Source of the DNA: a virus
Reading direction: 5' to 3' (one strand)
Virus record (IMG/VR): IMGVR_UViG_3300015263_001568
Coordinates: 16,100 to 80,099 of that record
Length of the DNA stretch: 64,000 nt
Below the pieces are notes generated by a model. It did no database searches and was not told the origin of the DNA. It was given only the letters and a program-made list of their open reading frames with translations. The position numbers and the translations under genes are program-made. Shown here piece after piece: positions 2,234 through 16,598 of the stretch; position 1 is the stretch's first letter, and every line of letters begins with the position of its first letter.

Positions 2234-3058
2234 CTACTTTAGGCCGGTGCCCTTGAGTGTAACAAGCTTGCGTGCGAAGTCAGGGTCACCGTACATCTTG
2301 GTATAGATGTTGATGAACTCCTGCGTAGACTCCTGGGCGACGCGCGGCGACTTATCGGTGATGTCGACGACGTTACCCTTGTGCACCTGGAGCACTTCAC
2401 CATTGGCGCGCACACGCAGAGTATCGGCGCCGACGAACTCCACCTCACCGAACTGTCGGTAGCCGTCACGGATGAAGGTGATACGATCACCAACATCGTA
2501 GCTCAGCATCCCAGCCTGGTGCAGGTGTGCAAACCGCGGACGATGGTGCGCCGTTCCCTTGCGGATTTTGCGCTGCCGGTTTTCCAAAATGGCAGCGATG
2601 TCATCCCGAGCAACGCGCACCAGGAACTTGTTGCCATTTTCATCCGCCATCGCTTCCCAGATGCGATTGCTCTCATCGGCAAAGCGCTGCGTACCATTGC
2701 TCGCCGTGTGCACGGGGATCATGTGCCGCGCATGGCTGATAGGTGCCAGCTCTGGCTGCTGCACAACAATACCGCTGACAGCGTCAATTTCGCTACCAGT
2801 GGACTTTTCATGCAGCCGCACGCTCTCCAACGCCAGGCGGAGCTGACCCTCAAAGGTGCTGGTGACCCACTGGTCAACCTGACTACCCTTCGGGCGGCCA
2901 AACTGTGCGTTGAACCCGATCAGAACCTTCGCAGAGTGGTCATCCACCACGTCCCAGTCCGACAGATAAAAGTCGGGACGTCCCGACCGAGTGCTGGCCA
3001 CTCGCTCGTTGATTCGGCGGGTGAGCTTGTCCGAGATGGTCTTCAGCAAGTCCGACAT
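2234..3058 (-). CDS. Hypothetical protein with C-terminal KOW/SH3-like barrel
   Basis: Start moved to MSDLL at 3058 (AGGAG upstream); C-terminal YDVGDRITFIRDGYRQFGEVEFVG looks SH3/KOW-like. Confidence 0.65.
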   Translation of the reverse strand: MSDLLKTISDKLTRRINERVASTRSGRPDFYLSDWDVVDDHSAKVLIGFNAQFGRPKGSQVDQWVTSTFEGQLRLALESVRLHEKSTGSEIDAVSGIVVQQPELAPISHARHMIPVHTASNGTQRFADESNRIWEAMADENGNKFLVRVARDDIAAILENRQRKIRKGTAHHRPRFAHLHQAGMLSYDVGDRITFIRDGYRQFGEVEFVGADTLRVRANGEVLQVHKGNVVDITDKSPRVAQESTQEFINIYTKMYGDPDFARKLVTLKGTGLK

Positions 3059-3147
3059 TTTCTTGCGTCTCCTTATAGGTTTTACGCACTCCAGTTCCAT
3101 GCGGAGTGCCGCAGTACCCCATAAGGTTAACTACAAAAATGGTCGGA

Positions 3148-4008
3148 CTACTCGCGAAGCGGTACGGAATGTCGACTACACAGCTTCTTAAATTCGGACT
3201 GCGATACGCCTACCGCGTTGGCCATGGCAGCAACCGCCGAAAAGCGCTCGGCGCACATCGTCAGCAAGCGTTTGATGGAAAGGTGGAATTCTTCTTCAAG
3301 GCGAATGTCGATAGGAGGCTTTTTATCGCGACATTGCTTACTACAGTAAGATATCGTGTCCTTTTTCAGGTAGGGCTTTTCAAACGAGCGCTCACAGACG
3401 GCGCAGACATTGGCGCTGGGAATGCGTGTAACGAGGTCTGTGTCTACTTCCTTGAGAATTTCCTCTTGCAGCGCACCTTTTCGCAGATTTGCCAACGTAC
3501 GCGTCAGCATCGAGCGCACCGCTGTAGGTGACATACCCAGCAAAATGGACAAGTCGTGATTTGTTAGTATTGGCCCCTGGCGACCTTCGTAGCGCATATT
3601 GCGCGCCAGGTAGTGCAAGATGCAGTTGCGCGCCCAAGGATGGTCTGTGTGGAACGCACAGCTCCGCACGGCACAGGGCTGATGTATTGCAATGTTATCC
3701 AGCTCTGGGCAGTAGAACGGCGGCTCGTGGTCAATGGTGCGCGGCTCGTCGTAGAGCTGCTCCATGTTTCCCGAGAAAATGTGCTCGACGTATTCGATGA
3801 CACTGTCGGCCGTCATAGGACCGACAGTGTCCTCCAGAATTTTCAAATTAGCGGGGTATTGATGACAAGGCCAAGATGCCTTGCCCGCGCAGAGGTTGAG
3901 TCGGCTTTTCGTGATGCCGATGTCGAGCAGGAGCTGCCCCGCACGATGGCACACCTTGTACATTGGGCAGGACGGATTAAGGTCCTTTTTGGCAATCCGG
4001 CCTGTCAT
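3148..4008 (-). CDS. Cys-rich putative transcription regulator with sigma-region-4-like HTH
   Basis: LTNHDLSILLGMSPTAVRSMLTRTLANLRK resembles a sigma70 region-4 HTH; CAVC...YCSKQC zinc-finger-like motif; possible second HTH at the C-terminus. Confidence 0.6.
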   Translation of the reverse strand: MTGRIAKKDLNPSCPMYKVCHRAGQLLLDIGITKSRLNLCAGKASWPCHQYPANLKILEDTVGPMTADSVIEYVEHIFSGNMEQLYDEPRTIDHEPPFYCPELDNIAIHQPCAVRSCAFHTDHPWARNCILHYLARNMRYEGRQGPILTNHDLSILLGMSPTAVRSMLTRTLANLRKGALQEEILKEVDTDLVTRIPSANVCAVCERSFEKPYLKKDTISYCSKQCRDKKPPIDIRLEEEFHLSIKRLLTMCAERFSAVAAMANAVGVSQSEFKKLCSRHSVPLRE

Positions 4009-4022
4009 CCAACGTCACGCGA

Positions 4023-4721
4023 TCACTCGACTTCCCAAGAATCGGAACCGTCATCGGTATCGGCTGACGCAAAGTCTAGATCGTCATCGTCTTCCATTGC
4101 GTGCAGCTTTAGCTGAGAAGACTTCTTGGACTTCTTCTTGTCCTTCTTGCTCTTCTTCGCCTTCTTGTCCTTCTTCGGGCGCCCACGCTTCTTGGGAGCC
4201 TCCTCCGTTTCGGCCTCGACGTCCTTGTCCTTCTTCGGGCGCCCGCGCTTCTTAGCAGGAGGAGCCTCGTCAGCCTCGGCGTCCTTGTTCTTCTTCGGAC
4301 GCCCACGCTTCTTGGGAGCCTCGTCAGCCTCGGCGTCCTTGTTCTTCTTCGGGCGCCCGCGCTTCTTGGGAGCCTCTTCCGTGGTCTCAGACTTCCTCGG
4401 GCGCCCGCGCTTCTTGGGAGCCTCTTCGGCCGCAGCAGCAGCCTTCGGAGGACGTCCACGGCGCTTCTGTGGCGCTGGCGCTGTATCGGCACTCTCCGTC
4501 GCTGGAGCGGCAAGTGGCTCCACCTTGTCGATGCTCTGCACATCTGCGGTAGGAATGTACCGCGTGATGCGCTGATGCAGTGCTGGGCGGCCTCGCCCCT
4601 GCTTCACTACAACATCGAATTGGACCTGCACGAAGCTGCTATCCATTCCGAGAAGCAAGCCATCGACGTTTGCCTTCTTACCTTTGAGGGTTACGCTTAC
4701 CTGTTCGGCCTTCTTTGGCAT
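4023..4721 (-). CDS. Multi-AT-hook (HMGA-like) DNA-binding protein
   Basis: Six K[KR]RGRP[PRK]K AT-hooks plus one GRGRP; acidic C-terminal tail (EDDDDLDFASADTDDGSDSWEVE); GGAGG RBS. Confidence 0.85.
   Translation of the reverse strand: MPKKAEQVSVTLKGKKANVDGLLLGMDSSFVQVQFDVVVKQGRGRPALHQRITRYIPTADVQSIDKVEPLAAPATESADTAPAPQKRRGRPPKAAAAAEEAPKKRGRPRKSETTEEAPKKRGRPKKNKDAEADEAPKKRGRPKKNKDAEADEAPPAKKRGRPKKDKDVEAETEEAPKKRGRPKKDKKAKKSKKDKKKSKKSSQLKLHAMEDDDDLDFASADTDDGSDSWEVE
4140..4470. repeat. Imperfect coding tandem repeats (~50-65 bp) encoding AT-hook units
   Basis: Recurring ttcttcgggcgcccgcgcttcttgggagcctc units. Confidence 0.8.
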
Positions 4722-4751
4722 TTTGCCTCCTATCGTCTGCCGACTGTCTGT

Positions 4752-6347
4752 CTATGTGAGGTCTTCACGTAGTCGAATGAATCGGTTAAATCGTCCAATC
4801 GCAACTTCTGTCTTATCACCTTGAACGCGAAAGTCAACCTTCATCCCAACGATGTCTTTGCGTTTTTGCCAGTACGTCATACGCTGGTCGTTATCCGACG
4901 CATGAGCAAACCCCCCACCAACATGAAATTGGCGCCCTTTGTACTTCACCACAAAGTAGCCGAGGCGCTCACCATAACGGTACGAGCAATGCCCCTTCCG
5001 ATGCGTAGAAATCCGGCGGTCCGTCGCATCACTAATAGCTTCACGTAGTTCGGCGCTAAGTGCCCGCGGCCGATCTACAGAACAATGCAAGTACGAACCA
5101 TCGTCTTCGACAGATCCCCACTCCTCCATGATGGCACGTACCTTCTTGACGTCTGCCTTGGAGGCACCCGCGTGCTTGCCCTTACCCGCCACCGCATCAA
5201 CGATGGTACCGGTCACATCATCCTCTGGCTTCAACTTCAGGCACAGGTCGGTACGCTTGAACACATGTGGTGCCTTGGGGTCTTTGACCATGATGCCTTC
5301 AAACGATTGGTCGAGGCACCAATCGTAGTAGGCTTGCATCTCGTCCACGTCCAACACCATCCGATGCGCCAGAATCCACACATTGCTGGAAAATTTGGCA
5401 ACGCGCTTGGCTTTTTGCCAATTGGCTACCGTTGACAATAGCGCCCTTTTACGACGGCTCCACGCCACGTCAAACGATCCGCGCATGTAGTTTGGCAGCC
5501 AGGACCAATCGAATAGCACGCAGCGCACTTCCTTCAAAAAGTCGCGCTTGTTGAAGTTCTTTGTGCTGCGGATCAAACTTGACGTACGGTTCCAGCTTCC
5601 ATCCACTGCCAGAAATTCACCGTCCAAAAAGACGGGTTTGTCTTCGCGCGTCTTGGTGATGCGGTTAAGCGCGCGAGCGATATCACAGAGCTGCGAAGAA
5701 AATTCCGCTACCTGCTCGATGTGCTCACGGCGCTTATTTCCGCGCGTGTAAATGTGAATGCGCTGCTCAGCCGGAAAGGCAAATACCAATGCGCGCTCGC
5801 CATCCAGCTTGGGCTCCACCGCCAAGGGAAAACGTGGGCGCTTGCTGCCCTTGTAGACGTCTTCGTACTTCTTTGCCAGCAAGCAGCCGTTAAAGCTCCA
5901 TCCGCGGTCTTTTTCCTCGGTAGAACGCCAGAAGTCCTTTCCCCAAATCTTGGTGATGGTCTTTTTGCTTACACCGATACGTAAATCGTGGTTGAGGATG
6001 CGGCGAAACCACTTCGCGAGATGCTTGGGAACCGACACCAGTAGCCGGTCTGTAGCCATGGAGGCTGTCTGCCCAGTCATTTCGCGTGACGTCAAAGCCT
6101 TTGCCAAGCGCACGAACTTGTCCCACGCTTCCCGCTCATCGGGAACCGTTACCGCCGGGACAAGGTTGGCAGTAGGATGCACATGGTACATGTCGCCACC
6201 GAGTGCCATCAAGACAATGGTACGCAGCAACTGGTTGTCTTTTTCCTGCTCCAAGACAGTCTCTTTGGAGAGGCGACTAGACATGTTCTCCATGTGATCG
6301 AGAGCCTTAATAGCGGCCTCGATTTCTGCCTTCGTGACGCGCGGCAT
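4752..6347 (-). CDS. lig: ATP-dependent DNA ligase
   Basis: EPKLDGER adenylation motif, LDGEF, EGIMVK, LKLKP, C-terminal OB fold (VGGGF). Confidence 0.95.
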   Translation of the reverse strand: MPRVTKAEIEAAIKALDHMENMSSRLSKETVLEQEKDNQLLRTIVLMALGGDMYHVHPTANLVPAVTVPDEREAWDKFVRLAKALTSREMTGQTASMATDRLLVSVPKHLAKWFRRILNHDLRIGVSKKTITKIWGKDFWRSTEEKDRGWSFNGCLLAKKYEDVYKGSKRPRFPLAVEPKLDGERALVFAFPAEQRIHIYTRGNKRREHIEQVAEFSSQLCDIARALNRITKTREDKPVFLDGEFLAVDGSWNRTSSLIRSTKNFNKRDFLKEVRCVLFDWSWLPNYMRGSFDVAWSRRKRALLSTVANWQKAKRVAKFSSNVWILAHRMVLDVDEMQAYYDWCLDQSFEGIMVKDPKAPHVFKRTDLCLKLKPEDDVTGTIVDAVAGKGKHAGASKADVKKVRAIMEEWGSVEDDGSYLHCSVDRPRALSAELREAISDATDRRISTHRKGHCSYRYGERLGYFVVKYKGRQFHVGGGFAHASDNDQRMTYWQKRKDIVGMKVDFRVQGDKTEVAIGRFNRFIRLREDLT

Positions 6348-7501
6348 TATTCTGCCTTGGTGGTATGGTGGTGCACGGCCTTTTTGACGATGGCCGGCTT
6401 GTACAGCTCACGGAAGTCCTTGAGAGGATACGTCAACGTGATGCCCGCGTGCACGCCTTCGATGCAAATCAGCGAAACCTGCCCTGCGGCATTTTTCGCC
6501 ACGAAGCCCTTGCATGCCATTCCGGTAGCACGGTCCGTCCACGTCACGGTGTCGCCCAGCGCGAACTTGAACTTTTCCTTGTCCTTCGTGCTGCCACGTC
6601 GGCGCATGACGACGCTGTAGTCGCTGAAGAACCTACGCGCGAGGTCGATCTGCTCAGCGTTGGTAAAGCCATTCAGAATATCCTGAACGCTTTGCAGTGC
6701 GTCATCGATCTTCAGCGCCGGATAGGACCTCTGGCACTTTTCCTCGAACCACTTCAACACGCGCTCTTGTCCCCGCAAGTAGTTGTAATGAACTTCCGAA
6801 GCGCGCTTGAGAAGCTCAATCGTGGGCTCGTCCATCCCCATAGCCTCTGGCACCACGTCGGCCATCTCATGGCTAATGAAGAATGACTGGCAGCTCCACT
6901 TGTCCTCACGCATCGGCTCGCCGCTGACCGTGTTCTTCTCGCTGCACACCGCTCCATGAGGGCCTACATACTTCCACACTGCGCACTGTCGGCATTCCAA
7001 GGGGATGACATCGCCGACCACATAGTCCTTACCAGCATGCTGGTAGCCCTTCTGCACTGTGTAGGTAGACGGTAACTGTTTCGGCTTCGGTCCACGCTTT
7101 GCTTGCTCCTTGGAAGACGTTGCAGCCTTTGCAGGCGCAGCAGACTTTACAGGAGCTGCCTTCGCTCCCTTTTTTGGCGGAGCGGGCTCGTCATCCTCGT
7201 CTTCGTCTTCATACTCGAAATCATCATCCTCCTCGTCGCCATCCTCCTCTTCATCGAAGTCCTCGTCGTCTTCGTCCTCGTCGTCTTCGTCGTCCTCCTC
7301 TTCGTCCTCCTCCTCTCCATCCTCGCTATCTTCCCCGTCCTCGCTATCTTCCCCGTCCTCATCCTCATCGTCGAACTCTTCGTCGTCCTCGTCTTCCCCT
7401 TCCTCGTCCTCGAACTCTTCGTCGTCCTCGGTAATATCCTCGTCTTCGTCGTCCAGTGCCTCAACCGCGGCTTCTAGCTTTTTCCGGCTATCCTTAGACA
7501 T
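6347..7501 (-). CDS. Protein with ~90-aa N-terminal D/E tract, Cys cluster and C-terminal KOW-like domain
   Basis: 384 aa; GGAGG RBS; CRQC...C...C motif; FALGDTVTW at the C-terminus. Confidence 0.75.
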   Translation of the reverse strand: MSKDSRKKLEAAVEALDDEDEDITEDDEEFEDEEGEDEDDEEFDDEDEDGEDSEDGEDSEDGEEEDEEEDDEDDEDEDDEDFDEEEDGDEEDDDFEYEDEDEDDEPAPPKKGAKAAPVKSAAPAKAATSSKEQAKRGPKPKQLPSTYTVQKGYQHAGKDYVVGDVIPLECRQCAVWKYVGPHGAVCSEKNTVSGEPMREDKWSCQSFFISHEMADVVPEAMGMDEPTIELLKRASEVHYNYLRGQERVLKWFEEKCQRSYPALKIDDALQSVQDILNGFTNAEQIDLARRFFSDYSVVMRRRGSTKDKEKFKFALGDTVTWTDRATGMACKGFVAKNAAGQVSLICIEGVHAGITLTYPLKDFRELYKPAIVKKAVHHHTTKAE

Positions 7502-7509
7502 GTGGCCTC

Positions 7510-8301
7510 CTATTCGTCGTCTTCGATTTCTGCCAGGGCTCCGACAACCAATCGTATGTCATCGGCGTCGACTTTATGTTCCTGCGCAATCGCTTCGATA
7601 TTTACTTCTTCGCGGTCTTGCGCCTCAAAATAATGGTTCACAGCTTGGCCGAGATAGATCCCATCACCGTCAATGCCTTCAACCCAACGGTAAAAGCTCA
7701 CTGCGGTATTTTTTCCTACACCTACCTTGGTCAAACGCTTACACGTTTTCTTCCACAAATCCTGGCTAATGTCGTCCATCAAACGCTTCACTGTCAACCG
7801 GCGAATTCGGTCGTGGTAGCGTTCATCGACTTCTGCAAGGATTTTGTCGAACCACCATTGCAAGCGCCGCCGCGGTGCTTTAGCCTTTTTGTCTACAACG
7901 AGCGCAGCTTCTTTGACAGAGGAAGCAAGCGGGATGTCCACAGCCTCTTCCTCGATGCGTTGATTTACCACATCCGGAAGCTGCCGCAGCATCTCGACCA
8001 CTTTGCCTTCGCGTGTTACTGCGTCAATGATGGGGACACCCATACGATTAAGGTCTTCTGGATTGCCAAAAACCAGCAAGCGGTGAATGCTACTATGGTG
8101 CTCGCGCAGCGCTTGCAACTTGCTCGTATCGCGCAGTAGCACAATGTGCCGCTTGTTCGTGTCTGACAAATCCAAGTCTTCAGGCAGCTCCGGTAGTGGC
8201 GGATACACATGCATCCGCTCGCCTCGATTGTACTTGTAATGGATTACAATGACTTCTGGCGAGAGCACCGAAAAGCCTACCGCTCGCACGGTTTCGCTCA
8301 T
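7510..8301 (-). CDS. Hypothetical protein
   Basis: 263 aa; AGGA RBS; ATGA overlap with upstream gene. Confidence 0.7.
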   Translation of the reverse strand: MSETVRAVGFSVLSPEVIVIHYKYNRGERMHVYPPLPELPEDLDLSDTNKRHIVLLRDTSKLQALREHHSSIHRLLVFGNPEDLNRMGVPIIDAVTREGKVVEMLRQLPDVVNQRIEEEAVDIPLASSVKEAALVVDKKAKAPRRRLQWWFDKILAEVDERYHDRIRRLTVKRLMDDISQDLWKKTCKRLTKVGVGKNTAVSFYRWVEGIDGDGIYLGQAVNHYFEAQDREEVNIEAIAQEHKVDADDIRLVVGALAEIEDDE

Positions 8302-8864
8302 TGTTGCACTATCCTTCTTAGGCGTTCAAACAGCGGCGCTCGCGCACTGGAAAATGGGAGTACCACGGACAGGTAGCCTGTGTCAATGGCGGTGATTTCC
8401 GTGTTCAGCGGGGCCTTGGTGTTCGCATCATCGCCAATGAATTTTACCTGGATACGTTTGTTGCCCTGCACATCTTTCAGCCGAACATTAGGCTTGCTGC
8501 TGATCAAGCTTGGATGGCTGACAATTGAAAATCCGGTGTCTGTTACGATGAACGGCAGCTTTTCAGGAAGAAAGCCCGCAATCTCCTGCACTGTATTGTG
8601 CAGCAGCTTATGGGTATCATCCCAACGCTCGTCGTACTCTTGACACAAATCCCAATACAACATAGCCGCAGTCTTATCCGACTCGATGCGCGCCATGCGT
8701 TGCAGCAATGCCATGCTGGAAAGAGTAAATGAGCGGCCGTCTTTCATGAGGATGCGCAGCGCGCCATCACCGAACGATATCTGCTGCACTATGTTGGGGT
8801 TTAGGAACTCGTACAACGACGCGCTTCCTTCACGGTACATCTGTAGAAAAACGTTGACCAACAT
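8298..8864 (-). CDS. Hypothetical protein
   Basis: Likely start MLVNVF at 8864, just after the SbcC stop. Confidence 0.65.
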   Translation of the reverse strand: MLVNVFLQMYREGSASLYEFLNPNIVQQISFGDGALRILMKDGRSFTLSSMALLQRMARIESDKTAAMLYWDLCQEYDERWDDTHKLLHNTVQEIAGFLPEKLPFIVTDTGFSIVSHPSLISSKPNVRLKDVQGNKRIQVKFIGDDANTKAPLNTEITAIDTGYLSVVLPFSSARAPLFERLRRIVQQ

Positions 8865-8865
8865 A

Positions 8866-11295
8866 TTAGCTTCGATCGTAGCGTGCTGCAATTTGTTGAT
8901 AGCGCGCAGGGATGCCGCCTCTATACAGCGTTGACTCATTATTTTCGCGAACAGCCCACCACACTTGGTCCCAAACGGGATCTGCCAAAACTTCAGGCCG
9001 ATGGCTTACGACGAACACCGAGCCGAACTTTTGGCGCAGCATGCCTAGGATGCTGATCAAGCCAGCCGTCCCCTGCGGGTCGAGGCTTCCAAATGGTTCG
9101 TCTACAATGAGCACGTTTGTCGATGACTCTGTGTAGCGCTCTTTAAGGTCTCGCATACCAAACAGCATTGCCAATCCACTTTTGTGCTGCTCGCCTCCAG
9201 ATAGCAAGCTGCTACGCGTGGCAATATTACCATCTCGGCGACGGAGTTGGAATTGTATCGCATCCATGCTCTCTGACAACTCCAAGTCCACCGTGCGTCG
9301 GGGCCAGAGCACACTACTATACACCGGTACAGTAGTCTCAGTCGCGTCCTGCAAGATGGCGCGAAATCGATCTTGCTTGAGACCTTGGCTGCCGAATGCT
9401 TTCTTGAGGGCCTCCAGGCAGCGCTTGTTGCGCAGGATGCCAGTACCCTTAGCCAACCCCTTACGGACTTGAGCAAGCCGTGCCTGGAGCGTCTCCGATG
9501 CGCTGAGGCGCTCTTCCAGGATGGCTATCTGCCGACTCAGGTCTTCGGTCTGCGCAGTAGCGGAGCTGACGATCTTCTCGGCTCTGGCTAGCTGCTCCGC
9601 AGTCTGCTCGCGATTGCCTTTGGGAAGATCATCCATCTGGTCAATCCGAGTGCGCACCCGAGCAATAGCCTTCGCTCGTCGGCGCAGAGCGTTCGCCTTT
9701 TTGTGCAACCCGGCGATCTGCTCTTCTGGAACCGTACCGCGTGCATCTATTTCTTGTATCTGAATCTCAAGATCGTGCTTTTGCTGCGAAATTTCTTTTT
9801 CAGCCACCAGTTCTTTTTCCCGCTTGGTGGCTGTACGGATATCGCGCTGCACCTCTACCGGTGTGCGGGTGGTATCGATGGACTTGAGCCGTGCAGCTAA
9901 CTGCTCATACTTTTCTGAAGTTTCTAGCGCCGACTTGGCAGCGAATATTTCCTTCTTGACTTTACGCAGCTGCTGTCGGGCACCGCGCAGCTTTTCCCGC
10001 AGTGCTTCTGGATCGCTTTTTGTGTCGAGAGGGCGGTGGCACGTTGGGCAAACGCTCTTGTCTAAATGGCGTACTGTTACCTCTATCTCACGCTCTAGCG
10101 CCCCTTCTTCACGCATATACGCTTCTACTTGCTTGCGCAGCGGCTCAACATTTTCAGGCGGCTTGTCGAGTCCGGCCAGCTCTTCCGTGATTTCGTATCG
10201 CTGCTCAGCCTGTGGTAGCTCGGTATTTTGTAGGTAGCGCAGCTGTGACTTTACTTCGCTCAAGTCGGTGTCGATGTCCGCTAAGGCACGTCCAGACAGC
10301 TTGGACAGCTGGCGCTCAAGAATGTCTCTTCGTTGCGCTGCTTCACGTTGACGTTGCGCTGTATGATATGCATCCGACGCATCGGTGGCTTGTTGGTCGA
10401 TGGATTCGACTTCGGCGTCATCGATATCCGACGGTTTGTCGTACCATTTCCCGAGGTCTGCATCGTCCCAGATCACTCTGACCTGCTCAATAAGTTGCTT
10501 GCGCTGGTCGAGCTGGTTCAAGCGATCTCGTAGCTCCCGTGATTCCTGTACAGCCGCGTTGGACTCTGTGCGCAGCTCTTTTAGCTGGCGCTTGCGCTTC
10601 TTGAGTCTGGAACGCATTTTGTCGACATCACCAATATCGCCAGCGCGCGCTTCGAGGCTACCCAACTCGCGTTCCAAAGCCTCGATGTCGACCAAGCTAG
10701 TGGCCACGGATTTTTCACGGTCTCGGAAAATGGCGTACATGTTGTCGAAGACATCAAGCCCAAACATCTCTGTCAGGCGTTTGTAGCGATCGCTTCGCTT
10801 ACCATGCAGTAGCACATGGCTTAGCTTCTGCGGCAGGTACACCAAGTTGAAAAAGCTTGTGTCATCCAGACCTAGGTGAGCCTCACGGATCCATTTATGC
10901 GGCGCACGCGCAGCTCTGCTCGGAATGATGTTTTGGCCTGTGGACGTGTCCACAACACGGATCGCATCACCGTGAAGCGTGTGCTTACGATATTGTCGAA
11001 TTTCAAACGGGCGGCCATCTACGCGGTATTTTAGCACCGCCTCGAAGTCTTTTCCCGCAAGGTCGTTGACAACGTCGTTCTTGGAAAATTCCTGGCCCGA
11101 GCCTCGACCTCCGTAGCCTACCTGGATACTGGAAAATATTTCCCACAGTGAGGTTTTTCCACAAGCCAGGAAGCCACCATCGTCTACGTTCAATCCGCGC
11201 ACCAACACCAACCCTTGACCATCCAACGGTAAGTCGCAGTGGCGGTAGACGTAGCCGTTTTTGAACGTCAGGTGATCGTACTGAATGTGCGGCAT
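8866..11295 (-). CDS. sbcC: SbcC/Rad50/gp46-like SMC ATPase
   Basis: Walker A (CGKTS), long coiled coil, CPTC zinc hook, LSGGE signature, IVDEPFGSLD Walker B/D-loop, VSH H-loop. Confidence 0.93.
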   Translation of the reverse strand: MPHIQYDHLTFKNGYVYRHCDLPLDGQGLVLVRGLNVDDGGFLACGKTSLWEIFSSIQVGYGGRGSGQEFSKNDVVNDLAGKDFEAVLKYRVDGRPFEIRQYRKHTLHGDAIRVVDTSTGQNIIPSRAARAPHKWIREAHLGLDDTSFFNLVYLPQKLSHVLLHGKRSDRYKRLTEMFGLDVFDNMYAIFRDREKSVATSLVDIEALERELGSLEARAGDIGDVDKMRSRLKKRKRQLKELRTESNAAVQESRELRDRLNQLDQRKQLIEQVRVIWDDADLGKWYDKPSDIDDAEVESIDQQATDASDAYHTAQRQREAAQRRDILERQLSKLSGRALADIDTDLSEVKSQLRYLQNTELPQAEQRYEITEELAGLDKPPENVEPLRKQVEAYMREEGALEREIEVTVRHLDKSVCPTCHRPLDTKSDPEALREKLRGARQQLRKVKKEIFAAKSALETSEKYEQLAARLKSIDTTRTPVEVQRDIRTATKREKELVAEKEISQQKHDLEIQIQEIDARGTVPEEQIAGLHKKANALRRRAKAIARVRTRIDQMDDLPKGNREQTAEQLARAEKIVSSATAQTEDLSRQIAILEERLSASETLQARLAQVRKGLAKGTGILRNKRCLEALKKAFGSQGLKQDRFRAILQDATETTVPVYSSVLWPRRTVDLELSESMDAIQFQLRRRDGNIATRSSLLSGGEQHKSGLAMLFGMRDLKERYTESSTNVLIVDEPFGSLDPQGTAGLISILGMLRQKFGSVFVVSHRPEVLADPVWDQVWWAVRENNESTLYRGGIPARYQQIAARYDRS

Positions 11296-13248: not shown

Positions 13249-14302
13249 CCTCGTAGGGGTTGCTGAAGGAAACACCTAGTTCCTTTGCCGCCGCGTCGAC
13301 GAACTTGAACGCGTGTGGCAAATACTCCTCCGGCAGACCAGCTTGCAGCAGTGTGTTGTCCAACCCGTCGAAAATGCCATGCACTCGGCGCGCATTCTGT
13401 GGAAGCGCTCGCGCCGGCATCTCTTCTCCAGGTTCAACATTCATCGGTAAAGGCATGGTGGACGTGGGCATCGCGTGGAGCTTCACAAAAGCTTCAGCCG
13501 CGCTAGGCCACACGTCAGGAACTTCATGTAGTTCAATCAGCTTGGTAGAACGTATTGGGACGTATTTCGGATTCGTTGGATCGGCGGTATCGACGACCAA
13601 AACGCCTTTGTCGAGGTCTTCTCCAAATCTCGTTTGGTGCGGTGCGCCGCAGTACCACGCATTGGGCAAAATCGACTGCCGTTTATGGATGTCTCCAAGT
13701 GCCCAATAAGTAACGCCGTCGATCGGTTCCAAGTGCACTTGCGCATTCGACGTCACCATGAGCCCAGTATCCGTTTTGCTACCCACCACATTTTCATGCA
13801 GCACGACAATGATTGGCTCACGATGACGCTGCGCATACCGCACCATCGAGTGCACCATCAAGTAGACCTCTGCATCCTTCCACCCGTGACTGGGATCTCT
13901 AGCGGGAAACAGAAGCAGCTGACATCCATGCATCGACTTTATCAATGGCAAGCCGTCATGAATGAAATGCTTCCCCAAAATGTCGGTCATCCGGCTCAAG
14001 TAGCTAAGCGACGTATCCCCAATTTGACTTGAACGCACATCATGGTTCCCGCTGATCATCACGATGGGAACCGGCGACGACGCCAGCCAGTCCGTGAGGA
14101 CTTGTCGTTCTTGATGCAGGATGTCGCGGCGTTCCCAAATGTCACCAGCAACGATGGTAAAGTCGACGCGGTGCTTTCTAGCCGCCTTATGTATGCCCTC
14201 CAACGTCTGCACCATCCGACGCAAATACGCGGCCTGACTATGATCAGAGAACCGCCGCAGCGCATTGATGTGCAAATCGGACGTATGCAGAAACCTAGGC
14301 AT
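13241..14302 (-). CDS. sbcD: SbcD/Mre11/gp47-like metallophosphoesterase nuclease
   Basis: LHTSDLH, AGD, GNHD and LGDIH motifs; near sbcC. Confidence 0.92.
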   Translation of the reverse strand: MPRFLHTSDLHINALRRFSDHSQAAYLRRMVQTLEGIHKAARKHRVDFTIVAGDIWERRDILHQERQVLTDWLASSPVPIVMISGNHDVRSSQIGDTSLSYLSRMTDILGKHFIHDGLPLIKSMHGCQLLLFPARDPSHGWKDAEVYLMVHSMVRYAQRHREPIIVVLHENVVGSKTDTGLMVTSNAQVHLEPIDGVTYWALGDIHKRQSILPNAWYCGAPHQTRFGEDLDKGVLVVDTADPTNPKYVPIRSTKLIELHEVPDVWPSAAEAFVKLHAMPTSTMPLPMNVEPGEEMPARALPQNARRVHGIFDGLDNTLLQAGLPEEYLPHAFKFVDAAAKELGVSFSNPYEDD

Positions 14303-14676
14303 CAGAGGTCGTGCGGCCGAGCCGTCTTGCGCGCATTCTCCTGCACGCGCTTTACAGCCTTCAGCATCATGCCATAGACTTCGTGGGCAAGAGCGCTGGT
14401 AAGCTTGGGATCGATGCGCACGTCGTGGTACTTGAAGTATTCCTTGATTTTAGAAGCGGTCAGGATCTTGACGCCCATCTCCTTAACGGCCTTCTGGTGC
14501 GCCTCCAACCGAGCGCGCTTGTCATTGCTCTGAGCCGACCCATCAGCACCCTTCTTGGACTTCTTTTTCTTCTTTGCCACAGGAGCATCACCCTCGGTCT
14601 TTGCCTTCTTCTTTTTCTTCTTCGCTGTGGTGGCGTCGCCGTCGGTGATGGTCTTCTTAGTCTTCTTTTTCTTCAT
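14302..14676 (-). CDS. Bacterial-type histone with Lys-rich N-terminal tail (internal start)
   Basis: AAGGAG 8 nt upstream of the in-frame ATG at 14676; 124 aa. C-terminal ILTASKIKEYFKYHDVRIDPKLTSALAHEVYGMMLKAVKRVQENARKTARPHDL matches the histone-fold pattern (a1, RI loop, a2, RKT loop, short a3 ending DL). Confidence 0.8.
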   Translation of the reverse strand: MKKKKTKKTITDGDATTAKKKKKKAKTEGDAPVAKKKKKSKKGADGSAQSNDKRARLEAHQKAVKEMGVKILTASKIKEYFKYHDVRIDPKLTSALAHEVYGMMLKAVKRVQENARKTARPHDL

Positions 14677-15630: not shown

Positions 15631-16598
15631 TAAGACCTATGCAAAATAGCTCCTACTGGAAGCTTGGTGCTCTTCCAGCCTCGGTGCTTTTGTAGTTCCT
15701 CAACGTAGACTACCGCGGCCCCCTGTAGGCCACCGAGCTGCTGGAGCACCGCAGCAGCACGATCACGCGATGGTCGTGCCCAGAATACCGTATTCGAGCC
15801 GTCGTAGAAACTCGTGACTTTTTCAATGGGCGAATGGTCGATTTGCATCGTGAGCAGCCGCCCATGTACATCGCCCAAGCGACTATCGATCAAGTCAAGC
15901 TGCTGGTAGAAAGCTGCTGCTTGACGCCGATCAAACGCCTCTTCTGGATGCCGAGGTTGCAGCAAGCCTGTACGTCGCCGGAGACCGGCTACAAGCTGTC
16001 GCCGTGCTTCCAGGTAGAAGGCCCATATGGTTGCCGACAAAGGCTTCCTATGGGCCTCTACAGGCGTCCAGGTAGCAAGCCAGACATCCTGCGCAGCGAC
16101 CGGCATCAGCCGACTCAGGGCAAACAAGCGCTGCCGTTCAACGCCCGTGCGCAGTGCATGAAAGAGGCCGAAGGCTAAACTATTGATATCATTGAAAACT
16201 TCAATGGACGAAGGCGGAAACCCAAGCCAAGGCGGACTGCCGTTACCGAGAAGGTCTACGCGCGTGCGAAATGCCTTCCAAAATGGCTCGACCACTTCTT
16301 CGACCGCACCTTTCGTGGTGAGCCACTTTGACACACTTTCTGCCCAACGAGTAGCCTTTGCCGCAGCGAGCACGAGGACGTTTCGCTGGGCATCCTGTAA
16401 ACGCTGTAGGAAGCTCTTGAGGTCACTCAAGGGTTTCGCTACCTGCCAGGTACCACTGGGGCCTTCCTTGGCGCCTCGTGGCGTCCAGGAGGCATCCCAA
16501 GACTGTGCTGCATGGATAGTGCAGTGTGGCCCGCCGTTGCGCTTGCCGTGGATGACGCACACAGTGTCCGCAAGGCTATTCGTCATCGTCATCGGCAT
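15630..16598 (-). CDS. Hypothetical protein
   Basis: 322 aa ORF directly downstream of recA. Confidence 0.65.
   Translation of the reverse strand: MPMTMTNSLADTVCVIHGKRNGGPHCTIHAAQSWDASWTPRGAKEGPSGTWQVAKPLSDLKSFLQRLQDAQRNVLVLAAAKATRWAESVSKWLTTKGAVEEVVEPFWKAFRTRVDLLGNGSPPWLGFPPSSIEVFNDINSLAFGLFHALRTGVERQRLFALSRLMPVAAQDVWLATWTPVEAHRKPLSATIWAFYLEARRQLVAGLRRRTGLLQPRHPEEAFDRRQAAAFYQQLDLIDSRLGDVHGRLLTMQIDHSPIEKVTSFYDGSNTVFWARPSRDRAAAVLQQLGGLQGAAVVYVEELQKHRGWKSTKLPVGAILHRS

Follow-up and report, generated by a model that had tools for sequence, protein, structure and literature searches.

A predicted β-barrel protein with AT-hooks and an acidic-aromatic tip holds a conserved place beside DNA ligase in uncultured phages

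Here we describe a 232-amino-acid protein encoded on the minus strand, at positions 4023..4721, of a 64,000-nucleotide stretch of viral DNA (positions 16,100 to 80,099 of IMG/VR virus record IMGVR_UViG_3300015263_001568; hereafter, the window). A predicted small β-barrel is followed by six AT-hooks and an acidic tail carrying aromatic residues. This three-part build and the position of the gene, directly downstream of one for an ATP-dependent DNA ligase, are conserved in related phages, in several of which other basic repeats stand in place of the hooks. We judge the chances about even that the protein is an architectural nucleic-acid-binding protein, either a DNA-binding protein or a hub, of a jumbo-phage DNA replication and recombination programme. 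In that role it would probably coat DNA or organise it as the genome is copied; this takes as inferred its binding to DNA, a tip that autoinhibits or recruits, its oligomerisation and the timing of its expression. The source record is a linear contig of 80,099 bp from a marine-sediment metagenome; its CheckV completeness of 23% implies a genome of ~350 kb, that of a jumbo phage. Relatives of the ligase occur on contigs of 260-364 kb.

Three-part architecture of the protein

The coding sequence runs from an ATG to a stop codon at 4023-4025 and is preceded by a strong ribosome-binding site, with a Shine-Dalgarno AGGAGG legible directly in the sequence at 4726..4731 (minus strand), 4 nt before the ATG. 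The gap from the upstream stop is 30 nt and that to the downstream gene 14 nt, and positional orthologues at 18 loci back the reading frame. Two open reading frames (ORFs) that overlap the gene, 4109-4543 (minus strand) and 4126-4575 (plus strand), were rejected as by-products of the repeats, the conserved frame being 4023-4721 on the minus strand.

All parts of the protein are given here from the N-terminus, with minus-strand coordinates. Residues 1-66 (4524..4721), of mixed, Val/Gln/Leu-rich composition, form the predicted small β-barrel, which is delimited by two AlphaFold2 (AF2) models and by top fold matches to Hfq and Sm proteins. The tip of its β3-β4 hairpin carries GRGRP (aa 43-47; 4581..4595), a seventh hook core within the N-terminal domain. 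A linker rich in Ala, Pro and acidic residues (aa 67-85; 4467..4523), recognised by its composition and a predicted local distance difference test (pLDDT) score below 55, leads to the six-hook array (aa 86-190; 4152..4466), which has a net charge of +22 and is encoded by ~60-nt tandem repeats. The remaining two segments were defined by composition: a Lys/Ser-rich stretch (aa 191-205; 4107..4151) and the acidic tail (aa 206-232; 4026..4106), reading ...DDDDLDF...DDGSDSWEVE, with 12 Asp/Glu, no Lys/Arg, and both Phe and Trp.

The count of six canonical AT-hooks made in a preliminary description of this DNA was borne out. A regular-expression scan finds K(K/R)RGRP(K/P/R)K at aa 87-93, 104-110, 120-126, 138-144, 158-164 and 178-184, and the Pfam AT_hook profile matches the protein with E 1.4e-11 (43.3 bits against a cut-off of 17.4). 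Across all six frames of the 80-kb record, just one further ORF contains the motif even singly. The hooks had also been attributed to tandem duplication of the DNA, and the repeats agree with this: Tandem Repeats Finder reports a period of 60 nt with 3.7-4.9 copies and 80-83% matches. Units 3 and 4 are identical at 58/60 nt and the remaining units agree at only 25-46 of 60 positions, so the array owes its growth to duplications, of which one at least is recent.

The succession of a hook array and an acidic tail had been likened to the architecture of HMGA, and that order is indeed present. HMGA proteins are small and wholly disordered, with no folded domain. Like HMGA1/2, the phage protein carries several Lys/Arg-flanked RGRP hooks in a disordered region, then an acidic C-terminal tail; unlike them, it possesses a 66-residue β-barrel and six to seven hooks rather than three, and its orthologues replace the hooks. 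The likeness is probably convergent, because the hooks arose by local tandem duplication; this origin and the hook-free orthologues, for a motif that is short, argue for independence from eukaryotic HMGA. With its folded domain and locally arisen hooks, the protein is not a member of HMGA.

A conserved family at one position in related phages

Searches with the N-terminal part by phmmer (aa 1-77, against 1.84 billion representatives) returned the protein itself and one junk repeat translation (P0004), and a word-indexed search of 5.8 billion clusters with aa 1-80 returned only the protein itself. Phage sequences searched by tblastn, with either the whole protein or aa 1-74 as query, gave no match. 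For the 232-residue protein, PHROGs has no family and NCBIfam only sub-threshold matches, including the SSB profile PRK13732 at 20.5 bits, far below its cut-off of 265; AT_hook alone passes the cut-off in Pfam, with no family for the N-terminal part. Low-complexity sequence accounts for the blastn matches of positions 3000-9000 to jumbo phages PaBG, Lu11 and BcepSaruman and to Dickeya and Erwinia phages, which we rejected as homologues. These are spurious because the CTT/CTC-rich array (4150-4476, against L001-L004) pairs in the opposite sense with GAA/GAG-rich genes for poly-Asp/Glu proteins, PaBG_00125 and Lu11_0161 among them.

Relatives were reached through an alignment of the ligase (65 homologues), which served as an anchor for collecting related loci from IMG/VR and from metagenomes; neither the ligase nor the barrel, when scanned against IMG/VR as a single sequence, gave any match. 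In 18 loci, with ligase identities of 36-59% (tblastn of the window neighbours), the gene order is acidic protein, ligase, the slot occupied here by the AT-hook gene, then the genes for a 286-residue protein (Zn286), p288 and p279. The slot is filled in 18/18 loci examined by a protein of ~150-250 residues that combines a barrel, polycationic repeats and an acidic-aromatic tip. A profile search with the N-terminal alignment added just eight cluster representatives among the 5.8 billion clusters, and the family profile matched only bL21/uS9 among PDB sequences, at E 0.27-0.5. By sequence comparison, no homologues were found outside the related-phage clade in the searches run. The slot proteins are a clade-restricted new family, assembled from known modules.

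The barrel occurs in two subtypes. That of the window protein follows the pattern MPRK..VTLVGVRGAKLPV...VVQA..K.GRGRG...TY.IPK..V.YY, and the second opens with a helix-like ..SA.DLG.LLKKGKIV segment; the two are related over 59 columns (hhalign probability 87%, E 3.7e-6). Most family members keep the basic RGR(G/P) loop at the position of GRGRP in the window protein. The middle tract is more variable. It consists of 2-6 AT-hooks in most members, of RKPGPKPK repeats in L013 and L034, of Lys/Ala/Pro- or Lys/Arg/Thr-rich sequence in L014, L020, L022 and P0077, and of KGKRGRKRK in L015; L020, the nearest relative by ligase identity (59%), has no AT-hooks. Since orthologues swap the hooks for PGPKP or for Lys/Ala/Pro-rich, H1-like repeats, the conserved feature is the basic tract and not AT-hook chemistry, and reading of AT-rich minor grooves does not stand as a conserved property of these proteins. 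The interchange parallels one reported for CarD, between HMGA-type and H1-like domains: in the CarD lineage, a Lys-rich H1-like domain is described as functionally equivalent to the hooks in a passage of PMC4374960 that cites Garcia-Heras et al.

Hook number differs even between near-identical relatives (2 vs 4, 2 vs 5, 3 vs 5 and 4 vs 5 units in P0070/L012, P0071/L028-L029, P0076/L016 and L030/L006), reflecting either fast expansion and contraction of the repeat or its collapse in short-read assemblies. An acidic C-terminal segment with one or two aromatics is present in 20/21 members, ending for example in ...ASLFDESF, ...DALFGDNF, ...ALFEDDF, ...(I/L)PW..DDDDFE(M/L/V) or ...DDDFDA, where the window protein has ...DDGSDSWEVE. 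Net charge lies between +12 and +45 in most members. The acidic part is apparently open to great expansion: at L015:6522-7238, two KGKRGRKRK units are followed by an Asp/Leu-rich acidic tail of ~140 residues, which may act as a DNA mimic.

The genes on the same strand as the AT-hook gene include those for SbcC-like and SbcD-like nuclease subunits, a clamp loader, a UvsX-like recombinase, an HNH endonuclease, a sigma factor and the ligase. As these neighbours serve DNA metabolism and transcription, we place the gene in the DNA replication and recombination block of the phage.

Predicted fold of the N-terminal barrel

Monomer structure prediction of the N-terminal region gave a five-stranded Sm/Hfq-like barrel spanning aa 6-66, with no N-terminal helix. 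From the single sequence, AF2 places strands at 6-12, 18-26, 30-39, 48-57 and 61-66 and a 3-10 turn at 58-60, with pLDDT 72-91, and predicts disorder throughout after residue 70. With a 19-sequence family alignment it returns the same topology at a mean pLDDT of 80.3. At the level of prediction, the barrel thus shows what is typical of Sm/LSm/Hfq: five antiparallel strands, strongly bent and ordered as in SH3 barrels, and a 3-10 turn that precedes β5. The N-terminal α-helix of Sm/LSm/Hfq proteins is missing from both models: β1 begins at residue 6, and structural alignments of the barrel begin at Hfq residue ~13-16.

Hfq and Sm/LSm proteins head the Foldseek and VIA-align lists for both models. 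Foldseek against PDB ranks Hfq first in a list made up almost entirely of Hfq, with Sm and LSm next; the best match is 6xyj, E. coli Hfq with an inserted long L4 loop (template modelling (TM) score 0.73-0.74, E 1e-3). VIA-align against 48,161 representatives gives Hfq Z 6.5-7.3 with a root-mean-square deviation of 1.7-2.0 Å over 50-52 residues, and many Sm/LSm chains at Z 5-6. One cytochrome domain scores Z 7.7-8.0, and no match is clearly set apart. In the ESM Atlas, a structure search finds the C-terminal SH3 domain of RimP (TM 0.80) and a feature search no usable named match; BFVD matches are weak (E >= 7e-3) and fall on uncharacterised phage proteins.

The N-terminal ~65 residues had been described as fitting an Sm1/Sm2-like pattern. 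The Sm/Hfq-like character stands for the predicted fold but not for the sequence: none of 19 family members matches Pfam LSM/Hfq at E <= 10. With both the N-terminal helix and the Sm/Hfq sequence signature missing, assignment to the Sm family is not supported; as other SH3-like barrels score almost equally, even kinship is unproven. What is well supported, as a prediction, is that aa 1-66 form a small Sm/SH3-class β-barrel whose strands are long and bent, as is usual in Sm/Hfq.

Proposed mode of action and alternatives

The features that persist across the family (barrel with RGR loop, polycationic tract and tip), set against the AT-hook chemistry that does not, suggest a multivalent, largely sequence-tolerant nucleic-acid binder. 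The barrel with its conserved basic loop may serve self-association, the binding of nucleic acid or a partner, or both. The long disordered tract, formed by the six AT-hooks and the Lys/Ser stretch, would bind DNA multivalently, entering the minor groove at short A/T runs and contacting the backbone electrostatically elsewhere; runs of five or more A/T occur about once per 100 bp of the phage DNA. By analogy with SSB, T7 gp2.5, Hfq and HMGB1, the acidic-aromatic tip might mimic nucleic acid and bend back onto the basic parts of the protein. DNA would then displace the tip and leave it free to dock replication and recombination partners encoded nearby.

Precedents exist for such a tip. The acidic C-terminal peptide of E. 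coli SSB and T7 gp2.5 competes with DNA for the barrel and, once released, recruits partner enzymes (PMC3936761), and the acidic tip of Hfq mimics nucleic acid and autoregulates the Sm core, HMGB1 being given as a further example (PMC5606850). The phage protein resembles proteins of the SSB/T7 gp2.5/T4 gp32 type in having a small barrel, a disordered linker, an acidic tip with one or more aromatics and a gene among replication and recombination genes. It differs from them in its linker, which is polycationic rather than Gly/Pro/Gln-rich, and probably in its barrel, which is not predicted as an OB (oligonucleotide/oligosaccharide-binding) fold: the predicted topology fits Sm/SH3, and no OB fold appears among the top fold matches. 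PF00436 and PF08804 have no match anywhere in the 80-kb record. On the tests run, the protein cannot be assigned to Sm/Hfq, CarD_CdnL_TRCF or SSB.

Several observations weigh against an architectural DNA-binding role. AT-rich islands are absent from the 80-kb record and long A/T tracts are few, so that no specific AT-rich target can be seen: there are 25 tracts of at least eight A/T and one of at least ten, a count below first- and third-order Markov expectation and near a second-order model, and the highest AT content of any 80-bp stretch is 65%. L015 and L023 are net acidic (-42 and -11) with very long acidic tails, a poor fit with simple DNA coating, and one ligase relative, L100, lacks a barrel/AT-hook gene. 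No sequence homologue with a known function was found for the N-terminal domain, and its fold assignment is not exclusive: YaeO, the RimP C-terminal domain, the BirA C-terminal SH3 domain and designed SH3 barrels score Z 5-6.6, nearly equal to Hfq, and the Z scores, all below ~8, fall in a range that the tool itself rates as middling. Finally, AT-hooks and Sm-like domains are able to bind RNA too.

This last property underlies the notion of an Hfq-like RNA chaperone or RNA-binding protein: its Sm-like core, perhaps assembled as a ring, would bear a cationic, disordered tail and an acidic tip with an autoregulatory role, and its hook motifs would bind phage or host RNAs. Hfq is the best structural match to the barrel (TM 0.73), and BFVD holds proteins of weakly similar fold from other phages that are annotated 'Sm-like' or 'Hfq-like'. 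Hfq is itself built of an Sm core and a disordered C-terminal extension ending in an autoregulatory, nucleic-acid-mimicking acidic tip (PMC5606850). The phage tail differs in being ~165 residues long, strongly cationic and furnished with AT-hooks, and the protein lacks both the Hfq/LSM sequence signature and, in the models, the N-terminal helix. Moreover, its conserved neighbours are a DNA ligase and recombination and replication genes, and canonical KRGRPKK hooks are classic binders of the DNA minor groove. We therefore think an RNA chaperone improbable.

A more elaborate form of the DNA-binding role, taking up the ring with dozens of AT-hooks proposed in the preliminary description, was also considered, in which the protein would form a putative Sm-type hexameric or heptameric ring, displaying ~36-49 hooks and 6-7 acidic docking tips per particle. 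Such a phage chromatin organiser would condense and bridge the genome as it replicates and would gather ligase and recombination enzymes on it, perhaps jointly with the hyperacidic, chaperone-like protein encoded nearby. We consider this version unlikely.

Quite unlikely, in our estimation, is a host-directed nucleoid effector whose hooks would occupy AT-rich host DNA and displace silencers of the H-NS/Lsr2/MvaT type or stop host transcription. AT-rich minor grooves are the common target of AT-hooks and xenogeneic silencers, and the scarcity of long A/T tracts and AT-rich islands in the phage fragment, which counts against an AT-specific target within the phage, would suit a protein aimed at the host. 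The hook-free orthologues, however, retain the slot and the build with PGPKP or Lys-rich tracts, so that AT-specific reading is not conserved, and the gene stands within a DNA-metabolism block and not among recognisable host-takeover genes. The countering of host silencers put forward in the preliminary description found no evidence in our analysis, in which the conserved position is a replication/recombination block and the tip resembles those of SSB, gp2.5 and Hfq.

An architectural transcription cofactor of the CarD/HMGA type, with the barrel contacting RNA polymerase or Zn286 and the basic tract anchoring the complex on promoter DNA, appears distinctly improbable as well. Myxococcus xanthus CarD is a parallel from the prokaryotic world, with a five-stranded Tudor-like barrel, an acidic segment, four RGRP hooks and a partner zinc protein, CarG (PMC4374960). 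The phage has its own sigma factor, and a protein with a weak Zn-ribbon and a weak helix-turn-helix (HTH), Zn286, always follows the AT-hook gene; by its sequence, Zn286 may be a transcription factor and hence a candidate partner. However, the Zn and HTH matches are all below the thresholds of their families. Pfam finds no CarD_CdnL_TRCF (PF02559) match in the 232-residue protein or its family, and the top 50 fold matches include neither CarD nor CdnL nor TRCF-RID, a result with which a Tudor-like relation is compatible. The domain order differs too: the acidic segment, which precedes the hooks in CarD, is C-terminal here, the ~110-residue CarG-binding module between barrel and tail is missing, and the setting is a phage replication block rather than a bacterial regulator.

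A packaged DNA-condensing protein, serving as polycationic counter-ion in the capsid or ejected to protect incoming DNA, would suit the high positive charge of most members and the implied ~350-kb genome but is very unlikely indeed, as the gene lies inside the replication/recombination module, distant from the structural genes of the window, and the conserved acidic-aromatic tip would be left without explanation.

An architectural nucleic-acid-binding protein would be of interest in this setting, since jumbo phages face the task of organising, replicating and protecting genomes of hundreds of kilobases; to our knowledge, few phage-encoded architectural DNA proteins beyond HU-like factors have been recognised. 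The literature searched contains no description of a phage protein combining an Sm-like domain with AT-hooks, and the jumbo-phage surveys consulted do not mention AT-hook proteins. Modules known from Hfq, SSB, HMGA and CarD are united here in one small protein, fixed at a single position of a replication/recombination block across an uncultured clade. The variation of its basic tract between AT-hooks, PGPKP and H1-like repeats, together with that in hook copy number, offers a natural experiment on the evolution of multivalent disordered DNA binders. If the barrel does form rings, the protein would be a DNA-bridging particle of a new and compact type that might be put to use in condensing DNA, and a ring-type organiser would give a clade of ~350-kb phages a chromatin-like system of a kind not described before. 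If it does not, the protein would still be a neat case of a prokaryotic virus converging on an HMGA-like design.

Neighbouring genes

The upstream neighbour and synteny anchor, the ATP-dependent DNA ligase (4752..6347, minus strand), matches Pfam DNA_ligase_A_M (E 2.3e-14) and phrog_114 (E 4.7e-63). The downstream neighbour, Zn286 (3148..4008, minus strand), is a conserved 286-residue protein whose sub-threshold matches comprise a sigma-region-4-like HTH (SigE family, E 0.082 at aa 149-179; HTH_AsnC, E 0.032) and a CxxC...CxxxC Zn-ribbon (DUF2256, E 0.027). Beyond the ligase gene, positions 6347-7501 (minus strand) encode a 384-residue acidic protein comprising an Asp/Glu tract of ~100 residues, a short Lys/Ala/Pro segment and a C-terminal domain at aa ~145-375. 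No family for this protein was found in Pfam, PHROGs or NCBIfam; its C-terminal domain is kept directly upstream of the ligase in 15 related loci.

Two further minus-strand genes have readings that profiles do not back. For 14302-14676, read as a histone, the sole Pfam match is to CCDC53, below threshold (E 0.46), and for 18299-20047, read as a gp32-like SSB, there is no match in Pfam or PHROGs. On a contig labelled as a Patescibacteria metagenome-assembled genome (L100:5050-7975), a ligase 43% identical to that of the window is accompanied downstream by a 640-residue ORF with an HNH-like Cys/His cluster; this may be a mis-binned phage contig that carries a mobile-element insertion.

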